Shown here in pieces: positions 45,682-49,337 of a DNA stretch of 64,000 bases (position 1 is the stretch's first letter; the number at the start of each line of letters is the position of its first letter). The stretch is from assembly GCA_964577665.1 (NCBI GenBank), contig CAZOBD010000004.1:81-64080 (forward strand). Reading direction: 5' to 3'. The translations under genes and the position numbers were made by a program. Source of the stretch: an uncultured Hyphomicrobiales bacterium (GTDB lineage Bacteria > Bacteroidota > Ignavibacteria > Kapaibacteriales > UBA2268). The notes under the pieces are model-generated. The model ran no database searches and had not been told where the DNA came from. It saw nothing but the letters and a program-made list of their open reading frames with translations.

Positions 45682-46983
45682 ATGAAAGCAGAGAAACTCG
45701 AACTGCCCCTGCTGCAGGACGCAAACATCAAAGGAAAAACAATTCTGATGAGAGTTGACCACAACGTGGTTAAAAAAGGCGAGATAATAGACCCTTACCG
45801 AATAGATGCCACAATCGGCACAATTTTCCACATATATGCCCGCGGCGGTAAAGTCATTCTTATGACTCATGTAGGAAGACCCCGCAATAAAAAAACCGGT
45901 GAGATAAAAATATCCGATCATACTTCCATTGAGCCTATTGTTGAATACTTGAACAAAAAACTCAATATAAATCTTGTTGCTGCTGAACCGGGAGAATATG
46001 GCAGCGAAGGTATTGAGCATCTCGATGATTCAATTAAAACACTTCTAAGGGATATGGATGAAGGGACAATTGACGGCATCTATCTGCCAAATACCCGCTG
46101 GTTCAAAGGCGAGGAAAGCAAGGATGATGCGGCTCAAAAATTTGCAGAAGAGCTTGCAGAACTTGCCGATATTTATGTAAATGACGCCTTTGGAAGCTGG
46201 CAGCCACATGTATCAACTTATCATATTGCAAAACAGCTTCCATCATACGCAGGACATTTAATGCAGAAAGAATTAATCAACTTAGAAAGAATATACGATC
46301 CGAAAAAACCTTTCATTGCAGTTGTAGCCGGTTCAAAATTTGACACAAAAATAGATTCACTTTATGAATTGATAAAAAAAGCCGATAAGCTTATTCTCGG
46401 CGGGGTTATGTATAATGCCTGGCTTTCCGCAAAGTACAACTTCGACATAAAAGGCATTAGCGACGAAGATATGAAACATGCGCGGGATTTCGTAGAGTTT
46501 TCCAAAAAATACGAAGGCAAACTTATTGAATTGCCATATATCGTTGAGTCCGATACACTCGAAGGAAAATTTGAAGGAAAGCACAGAACACACAATATAA
46601 AAGAACTCAAGCCCGGCACTAAATTAAATTATGTCTTAGATGTAGCGCCGGAGTCTTTCGACAATGAGGAAATAAAAGATGTTTTCCATGAAGCAAAAAC
46701 CGTTTTTGTCAATGCGGTAATGGGATTCACCCCGCACTTTAACGAGGGAACAATAGCTCTCGACCAGACCATTGACGAAAACCGAGAAGCATCAAAACTA
46801 TATGGCGGCGGCGACACCATGCAGGAGCTGAAAAGATTGCTGCCGGGGCTTTACATTGTTGCCATTGACAGCCCGAAATATTATATATTTACAGGAGGCG
46901 GTGCAGTTCTCCGCGCTATCCAAGACGGAACATATCTCGGCTTGGAACCGGTAAAAGCTTTACATGAGCAGTATTCCAAATAA
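45682..46983 (+). CDS. Divergent phosphoglycerate kinase-like paralog
   Basis: 433 aa; PGK-like blocks with substitutions (RVDHNVV vs RVDFNVP; MTHVGRP vs SHLGRP; C-terminal GGGDTMQEL vs GGGDSAAA); AGGAG RBS 6 bp upstream. Confidence 0.6.
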   Translation: MKAEKLELPLLQDANIKGKTILMRVDHNVVKKGEIIDPYRIDATIGTIFHIYARGGKVILMTHVGRPRNKKTGEIKISDHTSIEPIVEYLNKKLNINLVAAEPGEYGSEGIEHLDDSIKTLLRDMDEGTIDGIYLPNTRWFKGEESKDDAAQKFAEELAELADIYVNDAFGSWQPHVSTYHIAKQLPSYAGHLMQKELINLERIYDPKKPFIAVVAGSKFDTKIDSLYELIKKADKLILGGVMYNAWLSAKYNFDIKGISDEDMKHARDFVEFSKKYEGKLIELPYIVESDTLEGKFEGKHRTHNIKELKPGTKLNYVLDVAPESFDNEEIKDVFHEAKTVFVNAVMGFTPHFNEGTIALDQTIDENREASKLYGGGDTMQELKRLLPGLYIVAIDSPKYYIFTGGGAVLRAIQDGTYLGLEPVKALHEQYSK

Positions 46984-47017
46984 GTATTTGTAATTGTTTA
47001 ATCATTGGAGCAGATAT

Positions 47018-48205
47018 ATGCAGAGTATGGACAATGGAAATTTTAAATTCAAACATGTATTAATCCGCGTGGATTTCAATGTTCCCTTAGATTCAAAGCT
47101 AAACGTTGTAGATGATATGAGAATTACCGAATCTCTTCCATCCATAGACCAGATAATTGATGACGGAGGCATTCCCATAATTATATCCCATCTCGGGAGG
47201 CCCGGAGGAAGTCAGGAGAGAAAGTTCTCATTAGCTCCCGTTGCCAAGTATATGCATCAAAAATGGGGCTACAATGTAATTTTTGCCGAAGACTGCATAG
47301 GTCATCATCCTGAAAGAGCAGTTCAGCAGGCAAAACCCGGGGATGTAGTATTATGTGAAAATTTACGTTTCCATGAAGGAGAAAAGAAAAACGATATCGA
47401 ATTCGCAAAGCAGCTTGCAAAGCTCGGAGACTGTTACGTAAATGATGCTTTCGGTACTGTTCATCGCTATCATGCCAGCATACATGCACTACCGGGGCTT
47501 TTTGAAAAGAGATATATGGGCAAATCCGTGCAGTTTGAACTTGAATACTTAAAAAACGCTTTAAACAATCCTGCTTCTCCTTATGTAGCCGTTATAGGCG
47601 GAGCTAAAATCTCAGGAAAAATTGAAGTTATCCGCACTCTTATCGATCAATGCGACAAAGTACTTATTGGCGGCGGCATGATATTCACCTTTTTTAAAGC
47701 CATGGGTTATAATATCGGCAGATCAATTTTTGAAGAAGATAAAATATCTCTTGCTAAAGAACTAATAGAGCTATCAAACGAAAAAGGCAAGTCACTGATG
47801 CTTCCCGAGGATATTGTAATTGCCGATAATTTTTCTCCCGATGCCGAAGACCAGACCGTTGCCGTGGATCAAATCCCATCGGACTGGATGGGAATGGACT
47901 TAGGTGATAACACAATAAATAAATATAAAGAAGTCATCTTAAATGCCAACACAATCACATGGAACGGACCCATGGGTGTTTTTGAATTCAGAAAATTTGC
48001 CCGCGGCACAAAACAAATAGGCAATGCCCTTGCAAACGCAACTTCAAAAGGCGCAATAACCATTCTCGGCGGCGGTGATTCCGCTGCGGCAATGAAAAAA
48101 ATGCACCTTATTAACAAGGTAACGCATCTGTGCCCCGGAGGAGGAGCTTGGCTGAAATATATGGAAGGCGGAGAACTCCCCGGAATAGAGGCTTTGAAAA
48201 AATAA
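47018..48205 (+). CDS. pgk: Phosphoglycerate kinase
   Basis: Canonical PGK blocks (LIRVDFNVPLD, ISHLGRPGG, …ILGGGDSAAAMKK…); ATG at 47018 with GGAG RBS preferred over TTG at 46994. Confidence 0.85.
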   Translation: MQSMDNGNFKFKHVLIRVDFNVPLDSKLNVVDDMRITESLPSIDQIIDDGGIPIIISHLGRPGGSQERKFSLAPVAKYMHQKWGYNVIFAEDCIGHHPERAVQQAKPGDVVLCENLRFHEGEKKNDIEFAKQLAKLGDCYVNDAFGTVHRYHASIHALPGLFEKRYMGKSVQFELEYLKNALNNPASPYVAVIGGAKISGKIEVIRTLIDQCDKVLIGGGMIFTFFKAMGYNIGRSIFEEDKISLAKELIELSNEKGKSLMLPEDIVIADNFSPDAEDQTVAVDQIPSDWMGMDLGDNTINKYKEVILNANTITWNGPMGVFEFRKFARGTKQIGNALANATSKGAITILGGGDSAAAMKKMHLINKVTHLCPGGGAWLKYMEGGELPGIEALKK

Positions 48206-48338
48206 CTCTACTACGGTAAAGAATTTCTATATCCGGAAAAATAATTACATACTGTTCTTTGGGTTATAAATAAAATAATGCATTCTACTAAAAAAGAATT
48301 ATAGAATTACTCTTCATCATTATCAAGAAAGGAGAATT

Positions 48339-49337
48339 ATGTCTATCAGATTAGCTATTAACGGTTTCGGAAGAATCGGCAGGCTTGCCTTCCGCGCAGC
48401 ATGGGAAAAGAAAGATAATTTCGAATTTGTAGGTTTAAACGACCTCACAGACGCAGGCACTCTTGCTCATTTATTAAAATATGACTCCGTTCACGGCAAA
48501 TTTCCCGCCGATGTAAAAGCAGACGGCAGTAATATAATCGTCGGCGGAAAAACCATCCCTATCTTTTCGGAAAAAGATCCCGCTTCAATCCCCTGGGAAA
48601 AGCCGGATATTATCCTTGAGTCAACAGGCGTTTTCAGAAAACGTGAAACTTTGGAAAAACACTTGAAAAGCGGTGCCAAAAAGATTGTTCTTTCTGCACC
48701 TGCAAAAGAACCGCTCGATGCAACAGTTGTCTTAGGCGTAAACGACGACACTTTAACAGGCAGCGAAGTGCTCATTTCCAATGCAAGCTGCACTACCAAC
48801 TGTCTTGCACCAATGGTAAAAGTTCTGAATGATGAGTTTGGGCTTGAAAAAGGCTTCATGGTAACTGTCCATGCTTATACCAATGACCAGAGAATACTCG
48901 ATTTTCCGCATAGGGACTTAAGGCGTGCCCGCAACGCTGCAACAAACACTATACCTACAACAACAGGCGCCGCAAAAGCAGTCGGGCTTGTCATACCCGA
49001 AATGAAAGGAAAACTCACGGGTTATGCCGTACGTGTACCTGTCCCTGACGGTTCGCTGACTGATCTTACCGCCCTTCTGAAACGCGAAACAAGCGTAGAA
49101 GATATAAACAATGCCATGAAAGAAGCATCTGAAACGTATTTGAAAGGCATTATGGAATATTCCGATGAACCTCTTGTTTCAAAGGACATTATCGGAAATC
49201 CCTACTCCGTAATCTTCGATTCACAGCTTACCGATGCACAGGGCAGTCTCGTAAAAGTGGTCGGCTGGTACGACAATGAGTACGGTTATTCCTGCAGAAT
49301 GATCGATTTGATTATTAAACTCGGCGGACAGCTCTAA
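48339..49337 (+). CDS. gap: Glyceraldehyde-3-phosphate dehydrogenase, type I
   Basis: 332 aa; NGFGRIGR Rossmann motif and active-site [12 protein letters not shown]. Confidence 0.9.

Follow-up and report, generated by a model that had tools for sequence, protein, structure and literature searches.

A 64,000-nucleotide stretch of contig CAZOBD010000004.1, from an assembly labelled as an uncultured Hyphomicrobiales bacterium (hereafter the window), carries two genes of the phosphoglycerate kinase (PGK) family in tandem, followed by gap, the gene for glyceraldehyde-3-phosphate dehydrogenase (GAPDH). One is a canonical pgk; the other, directly upstream and here called PGKdiv, is divergent, and the question raised by the locus is what such a second copy does beside an ordinary one. 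PGKdiv is a real, intact PGK-family paralog under strong constraint, and belongs to a deep clade of its own. Tentatively, we read it as an active PGK-type phosphotransferase that would work on 1,3-bisphosphoglycerate (1,3-BPG) and 3-phosphoglycerate (3-PG), with altered co-substrate recognition and probably altered closure or anion control.

The tandem pair upstream of gap had been pointed out in an earlier note on this DNA, and both open reading frames (ORFs) were found at the coordinates of Table 1, each matching Pfam PF00162 from end to end. The mechanical ORF of the canonical gene begins at a TTG at 46994, and the gene was taken from the ATG at 47018. PGKdiv scored 282.3 bits against PF00162 (cut-off 27), with residues 11–414 covering profile positions 1–377 of 379; the canonical product scored 477 bits. 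The two neighbours are only ~27–29% identical (27% over 428 columns, E 6e-32), and PGKdiv is the longer by 38 residues, where the earlier note had counted about 35 extra in a protein of 433 aa. Comparison with canonical PGK places the extra residues in three insertions: the first follows the GRP motif and carries a conserved KKTG, the second adds a helix to the N-domain near residues 117–126, and the third lies before the last Gly loop (residues 386–400), where confidence in the AlphaFold2 model is lower. The model as a whole (pLDDT 89.7, pTM 0.86) has the two-domain PGK fold. The best 50 Foldseek matches listed are all PGKs, with template-modelling (TM) scores of 0.69–0.88; the closest folds in the PDB are bacterial and human PGKs (1PHP, 2XE6; TM 0.78–0.81, 25–29% identity), and no solved structure nearer than these was found there.

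Hundreds of database proteins match PGKdiv at 97–100% coverage and 66–72% identity, nearly all from metagenome-assembled genomes (MAGs) of Bacteroidales, Marinilabiliales and Kapaibacterium, and they are named 'phosphoglycerate kinase' wherever the source gives a name. Since these homologues span 97–100% of the protein and the model keeps the PGK fold, PGKdiv is not a decayed copy. At three loci that hold all three genes (L003, L076 and L077), identity to the window was 72, 68 and 66% for PGKdiv, 82, 61 and 63% for pgk, and 80, 66 and 67% for gap; judged by these figures, conservation of PGKdiv is comparable to that of true glycolytic enzymes. Three other assignments were rejected. A pseudogene or pseudoenzyme is at odds with the intact ORF, the full-length homologues and an invariant catalytic core; for an archaeal-type PGK, Pyrococcus 2CUN was the weakest PDB match and bacterial PGKs the best; and the PGK/triose-phosphate isomerase (TIM) fusion model NCBIfam NF010569 reached 205 bits against a cut-off of 883, over the PGK part only and without a TIM domain. 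No model in Pfam or NCBIfam separates the PGKdiv clade from other PGKs.

To follow the extent of this clade, 1.84 billion cluster representatives were scanned exhaustively with HMMER. A few deeper relatives emerged, at 54, 46, 42, 41, 40 and 33% identity; lower down, scores drop to those of the bulk of canonical PGKs, ~140–170 bits. A second database search, seeded with a picoeukaryote member of the clade, brought in proteins of ~437 aa from Thermodesulfobacteriota/Desulfobacterales, WOR-3 and one Pseudomonadota MAG, as well as proteins of ~470 aa from Klebsormidium nitens, Physcomitrium patens, Ceratodon, Marchantia, Riccia and the fern Adiantum. PGKdiv is 50–57% identical to the members from Desulfobacterota, WOR-3, green picoalgae, Klebsormidium, mosses and liverworts, against 29–30% to canonical PGKs. 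In neighbour-joining trees (200 bootstrap replicates), PGKdiv, the deep members and the wider relatives formed one clade, with every canonical PGK sampled outside it, including human PGK1, the pgk of the window and the canonical copies that adjoin PGKdiv elsewhere. The split between clade and canonical PGKs, the subclade of the Fibrobacterota–Chlorobiota–Bacteroidota (FCB) group and the plant subclade were each recovered in 100% of replicates. On this sampling of sequences, the clade is old and widespread, with members in several bacterial phyla and the green lineage. A phylogeny had been proposed earlier as a check for horizontal acquisition, and nothing suggests a recent transfer: the GC content of PGKdiv (0.413) and its GC content at third codon positions (0.399) match those of pgk and gap, and in the trees FCB sequences are a monophyletic group. 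Some MAGs with FCB-type loci (L003, L025, L030, L044 and others) carry the labels 'uncultured Hyphomicrobiales', 'Thiohalospira', 'Holophagaceae', 'Spirochaetota' or 'Altiarchaeales'; because their sequences are 67–72% identical to those of Bacteroidales, such labels seem to stem from mistakes in binning or labelling and not to show the true distribution.

Which parts of the active site the clade has kept was read in the literature numbering of human PGK1 (sequence index minus 1; the human sequence was checked to be identical to PDB 2XE6). Among all 80 FCB members and in the wider clade, R21, D23, N25, R38, H62, R65, P66, R122, K215, K219, N336, G340, G371–373, D374, T375 and G395–396 are invariant. 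In PGKdiv's own numbering, the kept residues are R24, D26, N28, R40, H63, R66, R139, K219, K223, N344, D378 and T379. Present without exception are thus D23, N25, R38 and K215, which serve phosphoryl transfer and the carboxylate and 2-OH groups of 3-PG, along with the nucleotide-phosphate and Mg ligands (K219, N336, D374, T/S375 and the Gly loops); K215 and R38 presumably act at the transferring phosphoryl group. Published work assigns the kept set to binding 3-PG by its carboxylate and 2-OH, to the greater part of the 3-phosphate clamp, and to contacts with Mg and the nucleotide's alpha and beta phosphates (PMC7729029; PMC2441801).

Disabling substitutions at all catalytic positions, which the earlier note had named as the mark of a pseudo-enzyme, were accordingly not found. 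A non-catalytic pseudoenzyme or regulatory partner of canonical PGK or GAPDH is highly improbable: canonical PGK adjoins PGKdiv wherever this could be checked, and the PGK–PGK fusions encoded there (see below) hint that contacts between PGKs matter, but throughout this very deep clade the catalytic and phosphate-binding residues do not vary. Kinetoplastids and diplonemids have dead PGK-like proteins, with essential substrate-binding residues substituted or deleted (PMC7729029), which resemble PGKdiv in being extra paralogs beside a working PGK; PGKdiv differs in keeping the essential residues, except R170 and E343.

Positions were called diagnostic when one residue occurred in ≥90% of the clade and in ≤10% of canonical PGKs. 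By this measure the changes fall in the N-terminal domain (F24H, P27V, L117Y, E119P, F123W), at the 3-phosphate site (T167S, H169W, R170Q and a one-residue deletion), near the catalytic lysines (G212A, A/S217D) and on the nucleotide side (S255G, G337A, P338V, S392F); in PGKdiv's own numbering, changed residues are H27, W173, Q174, D221, A345, V346 and F403. Of these replacements, F24H, E119P, H169W, R170Q, A217D, G337A, P338V and S392F are invariant in the clade. In canonical enzymes R65, R122 and R170 form the 3-phosphate clamp, and R65 and R170 latch D218 at domain closure (PMC7729029). The clamp of the clade is incomplete, with R170 replaced by Q and H169 by W, and H62, R65 and R122 retained. 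A kinase for another carboxylic acid or acyl phosphate, for example a longer or differently phosphorylated sugar acid, would fit the loss of R170 and H169, the N-domain changes F24H, P27V, E119P and F123W, and the KKTG insertion after GRP. It is nonetheless decidedly improbable, given that D23, N25, R38, H62, R65 and R122, which hold the 3-PG 2-OH, the carboxylate and most of the 3-phosphate, are all invariant and that the neighbouring genes are gap and pgk.

At the nucleotide end, the ribose contacts are gone. The canonical NGPxGxFE reads NAVMG(F/Y/L)TP, with G337A and P338V invariant, and the segment after G340-x is two residues shorter (human FEWEA, clade TPH), and the clade core has no counterpart of E343. 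In canonical PGK, the ribose stacks against P338 and forms hydrogen bonds to E343 through its hydroxyls (PMC2441801). A remodelled adenine pocket was also considered and withdrawn: the supposedly clade-specific changes were F241N, G312V/I, G238V and L256G, but N241, I/V312 and A238 are found in certain canonical PGKs too, and which residue corresponds to L256 shifts with the alignment. Robustly diagnostic, as far as the alignments go, are only the changes on the ribose side and in the 3-phosphate clamp.

These results refine what had been noticed before. The altered blocks RVDHNVV, MTHVGRP and GGGDTMQEL are all there, but they are not the informative changes, as GGGDT keeps the functional D and T and MTHVGRP keeps H and R; the diagnostic ones are H169W/R170Q, G337A/P338V, loss of E343, A217D and S392F. 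Alignment to characterized PGKs, which had been suggested as a check, gave a divided answer, with catalytic residues and Gly loops kept and R170, H169 and the ribose contacts lost. The periphery of the active site has changed in a way that would be compatible with either of the roles proposed earlier, an altered specificity or a regulatory one. Set against the canonical bacterial enzyme (EC 2.7.2.3; Geobacillus stearothermophilus, 1PHP), PGKdiv shares PF00162, the two-domain fold (TM 0.78–0.85), the residues for the 3-PG carboxylate/2-OH, nucleotide phosphates/Mg and phosphoryl transfer, and an operon with gap; it differs in being 25–30% identical, in a clade of its own, with ~38 extra residues, H169W/R170Q/G337A/P338V/A217D/S392F and no E343. 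The GDP/GTP-selective PGK of Entamoeba histolytica (EC 2.7.2.10) is a precedent for a changed nucleotide preference with the same chemistry and glycolytic step (PMC7729029). By its description, that enzyme has a canonical structure with few substitutions, whereas PGKdiv belongs to a deep separate clade in which the 3-phosphate clamp is also changed.

The expression signals of the locus were examined next to its coding content (Table 1). A Shine–Dalgarno-like sequence precedes each of the three genes, in line with the ribosome-binding sites reported earlier, and 34 nt separate the PGKdiv stop from the pgk start. No convincing terminator was found on the + strand in the intergenic gaps of PGKdiv–pgk–gap. 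The hairpin 3' of gap folds at −27 kcal/mol (z −7.6), and none of 200 shuffled sequences folded equally well. With the sole strong terminator after gap, the three genes appear to form one transcription unit, as had been supposed, and the trio was found again on two independent Logan assemblies. For a leader RNA or riboswitch, an Rfam scan of 45300–49700 gave no match at E ≤ 1. The gap product scored 431.8 bits against TIGR01534 (cut-off 367.2) and 369 bits against NF033735, the ArsJ-type GAPDH model, below its cut-off of 450.

Table 1. Features of the window, with positions counted from its first nucleotide
Feature	Position	Strand	Basis or remark
PGKdiv, 433-aa divergent PGK-family paralog ('WQ/PGK4-like' clade)	45682–46983	+	ORF and Pfam PF00162
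Canonical pgk (395 aa; keeps H169, R170, G337, P338, E343)	47018–48205	+	ORF and Pfam PF00162
gap, ordinary type I GAPDH (332 aa), not of the ArsJ-associated type	48339–49337	+	TIGR01534
Shine–Dalgarno-like AAGGAG	45673–45678	+	3 nt 5' of PGKdiv ATG
Shine–Dalgarno-like GGAG	47007–47010	+	7 nt 5' of pgk ATG
Shine–Dalgarno-like AGGAG	48330–48334	+	4 nt 5' of gap ATG
Intrinsic terminator (14-bp stem, loop of 6, T-run)	49360–49403	+	Folding; closes the apparent three-gene unit
GH31 alpha-glucosidase with type IX secretion C-terminal sorting domain	42858–45572	+	Directly upstream of PGKdiv
1434-aa protein with HELGH zinc-protease motif	37747–42051	−	
Por_Secre_tail ORFs (at least three others)	10405–12549; 22888–24285; 33301–34533		
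HepT-like (toxin-type) protein	55290–55751	+	Just 5' of folD

To place this arrangement among relatives, the neighbourhoods of PGKdiv orthologues were surveyed at 80 species-level genome loci. The tandem, described earlier as uncommon, is not an isolated oddity: PGKdiv belongs to a large conserved clade, and a canonical PGK lies adjacent or close in 38 of the 80 loci. Where the two genes are adjacent, PGKdiv thus coexists with a canonical PGK in the same genome. For 30 of these 38, the neighbour is a PGK–PGK fusion directly 5' of PGKdiv, a single ORF of 794–795 aa that joins two full canonical PGK domains head to tail (two PF00162 matches, 988 bits), both halves of which keep the canonical residues (L019:3444–5828, L024:3481–5865 and 28 other loci, all Bacteroidales MAGs). 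Because the fusion directly precedes PGKdiv, such genomes encode three PGK domains in a row. Comparable double PGKs of 795 and 797 aa (P0134, P0139) turned up in the representative search, and no literature on PGK–PGK fusions was found.

The order PGKdiv–pgk–gap is shared by the window and L003; other orders are PGKdiv–gap–pgk (L076 and L077, both Kapaibacterium), pgk–PGKdiv (L022, L054, L070) and PGKdiv–gap (L030, L032), with gap close to PGKdiv in 5 of the 80 loci. As linkage to pgk or gap occurs in several architectures, and in a eukaryote as well (see below), it argues for a functional tie of PGKdiv to the GAPDH/1,3-BPG step, beyond inherited synteny. Other neighbours, namely a ROK kinase, GcvPA, a LacI-type regulator and trmB, recur within sublineages only. 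A nitroreductase-family ORF of ~180 aa overlaps PGKdiv by 3–7 nt, on its 5' or 3' side, at seven loci (L039, L064, L072, L075, L078, L079, L080; e.g. L079:5456–6004), which suggests translational coupling in that sublineage.

One further linkage bears on the acceptor of the phosphoryl group. In 30 of the 80 loci, all Bacteroidales, a phosphohexomutase gene (PGM_PMM domains I–IV) follows PGKdiv directly on the same strand, after ~70–250 nt (L004–L011, L013–L019 and others; e.g. L006:7376–8713). Phosphohexomutases need a hexose-1,6-bisphosphate cofactor, and mammals make such a cofactor from 1,3-BPG. One could thus imagine transfer from 1,3-BPG to a non-nucleotide acceptor: phosphate, giving pyrophosphate (PPi); polyphosphate (EC 2.7.4.17, for which we know of no assigned gene); or a hexose-1-phosphate, giving the hexose-1,6-bisphosphate. 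Phosphate and Mg contacts kept (K219, N336, D374, T375, Gly loops) while ribose contacts are lost would agree with this, as would the recurrence of GAPDH, the source of 1,3-BPG, as a neighbour. We consider it improbable all the same. The window lacks the phosphohexomutase link, which is confined to a single lineage of close relatives; nor was a clade-specific gain of basic residues demonstrated in the former nucleoside pocket. Phosphorylation of a hydroxyl would need a general base, of which none was identified, and the proposal is wholly inferential.

Of the readings weighed here, we favour that of an active phosphotransferase with different co-substrate recognition, because the chemical core is conserved and only contacts at the far ends of the substrates have changed. 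From what is seen directly (family, fold, clade, residue pattern, operon context and linkage) we infer an activity, substrates and physiological role as follows. PGKdiv would be a cytosolic, catalytically competent PGK-fold enzyme of an ancient paralogous 'WQ-type' clade, supplied with 1,3-BPG by the co-transcribed GAPDH, and would transfer phosphoryl groups, with the acyl phosphate of 1,3-BPG, or 3-PG, on one side and a di- or triphosphate as co-substrate on the other. Both substrates would be recognized at their far ends otherwise than by canonical PGK: R170, the third arginine that clamps the 3-phosphate and latches the domains, has given way to Q and its neighbour H169 to W, and P338 and E343, the platform and hydrogen bond for the ribose, are lost. 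It may thus be a specialized isoenzyme with another nucleotide preference or binding mode, free of the usual closure and anion control through R170.

Several points weigh against this. The Desulfobacterota and deep-branching members showed no recurrent PGKdiv neighbour, and the base pocket is not demonstrably remodelled, for the reasons given above. In yeast PGK, R168 mutants have weakened activity, not abolished activity, and since losses at R168 and E343 weaken rather than abolish activity with ADP/ATP and 3-PG, the ordinary substrate pair could still be the one used. The main rival, which these mutant data bring forward in showing that the lost contacts are not essential, is accordingly an ordinary ATP:3-phosphoglycerate kinase isoenzyme with the substrates of canonical PGK, set apart only by its kinetics, its stability, its anion regulation or the direction in which it works (gluconeogenic or glycolytic). 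Human E343A is active, with Km(ADP) raised from 0.12 to 1.24 mM and kcat/Km lowered from 9.0e6 to 3.3e4, or ~270-fold, and nucleotide binding by PGK has been described as an unspecific hydrophobic clamp (PMC2441801). A fully conserved catalytic core and an operon with pgk and gap point the same way, and the authors of a study on algal PGKs presumed PGK activity (3-PG recycling) for non-canonical forms (PMC7826186). We hold this isoenzyme to be rather unlikely, however, since W169, Q170, A337, V338 and the deletion of E343 are invariant from Bacteroidota to land plants, which would not be expected of a merely kinetic difference, and each of the two lost contacts costs ~10-fold or more in affinity in canonical PGKs.

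The earlier note had also allowed that the divergent copy might prove to be a known distinct family, and in part it did. PGK4, described from prasinophytes and early streptophytes, for example K. nitens, and termed 'algal-specific', has a function stated as unknown; a PGK4A–GAPDH3–ArsJ neighbourhood occurs in Mamiellophyceae, and the PGK4B of land plants is fused to a TrmB-like methyltransferase (Foflonker & Blaby-Haas 2020, PMC7826186). PGKdiv clusters (100% bootstrap) with Klebsormidium, Physcomitrium and Marchantia proteins, to which it is 50–56% identical, and with proteins from picoeukaryotes. On two picoeukaryote contigs (L084, 5001–10083, and L085), which carry typical eukaryotic ubiquitin-protease genes, a clade PGK-like gene adjoins a GAPDH whose best model is the ArsJ-associated type, with a major facilitator superfamily (MFS) transporter alongside (best match MFS_ArsJ, 346 bits). 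These picoeukaryote proteins share the full residue signature of PGKdiv, and their genes have the PGK4A–GAPDH3–ArsJ layout. One of the PGK-like gene calls (P0130) is 378 aa long against ~485–490 aa in its relatives, and is probably shortened at an intron. By grouping, signature and neighbourhood, rather than by the gene identifiers of the paper, PGKdiv is very probably a bacterial member of the PGK4 clade, a family that has no Pfam or NCBIfam model of its own. The window gene differs from algal PGK4 in being bacterial and in lying with an ordinary gap and pgk and without ArsJ nearby, and the paper on PGK4 describes neither bacterial members nor the residue signature (PMC7826186). Our literature searches found no later paper on PGK4 and none on bacterial clade members, and nothing relevant on divergent, second or atypical bacterial PGKs or on a PPi-dependent PGK. 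At 21 Bacteroidales loci, trmB (tRNA m7G methyltransferase) lies ~5 kb 5' of PGKdiv on the opposite strand (e.g. L067:1–407); despite the plant PGK4B fusion, this proximity is probably mere synteny.

The algal neighbourhood raises the thought that PGKdiv is an accessory of arsenate detoxification, as has been proposed for algal non-canonical PGKs beside ArsJ and ArsJ-type GAPDH. Clade members next to an ArsJ-like MFS transporter and ArsJ-type GAPDH in picoeukaryotes would agree with it, as would the published neighbourhood and the arsenate sensitivity of a Chlamydomonas pgk3 mutant (PMC7826186). That mutant, however, concerns PGK3, which belongs to a clade different from PGK4 (PMC7826186). No ArsJ homologue was found in the window or the fetched loci, the two picoeukaryote contigs excepted, and the GAPDH of the window is an ordinary type I enzyme under the NF033735 cut-off. 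An ars cluster in the window was rejected on these grounds, and we rate an arsenate role for PGKdiv as very improbable.

Beyond the PGK locus, the window consists of ordinary chromosomal DNA from a bacterium with a type IX secretion system in use, and several of its genes carry the corresponding sorting domains (Table 1). It also encodes cytochrome bd oxidase, FolD, MutS2 and DnaE. A stretch of low GC content (22001–26000; 0.33–0.35 against 0.39 for the whole window) includes a − strand gene (22888–24285) whose product is a WD40 beta-propeller protein that carries a type IX secretion tail.

The PGK fold, family and chemistry are already known, with the clade glimpsed in algae; apparently undescribed are its members in bacteria, the residue signature that it conserves, its systematic pairing with canonical PGK and the PGK–PGK fusions. 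The clade stands as a deep conserved sister group in which the residues for the chemistry are kept and two textbook substrate contacts are changed, and which occurs alongside the canonical enzyme, in many cases within one operon. Because databases label every member plain 'phosphoglycerate kinase', metabolic reconstructions treat PGKdiv as redundant. Should it prove merely a kinetic isoenzyme, the consequence would be a modest refinement of annotation. Were a non-nucleotide acceptor true, the reaction would be new to the PGK fold and conserved from anaerobic bacteria to land plants: with phosphate as the acceptor, a PPi-forming PGK would feed PPi-dependent glycolysis, and with hexose-1-phosphate, the product would be the cofactor for the phosphohexomutase encoded directly 3' in ~30 Bacteroidales loci. 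If the substrates do differ from those of canonical PGK, a step of central carbon or phosphate metabolism would be mis-annotated in hundreds of genomes, and the unexplained algal PGK4 and the plant methyltransferase fusion would gain tractable bacterial relatives.

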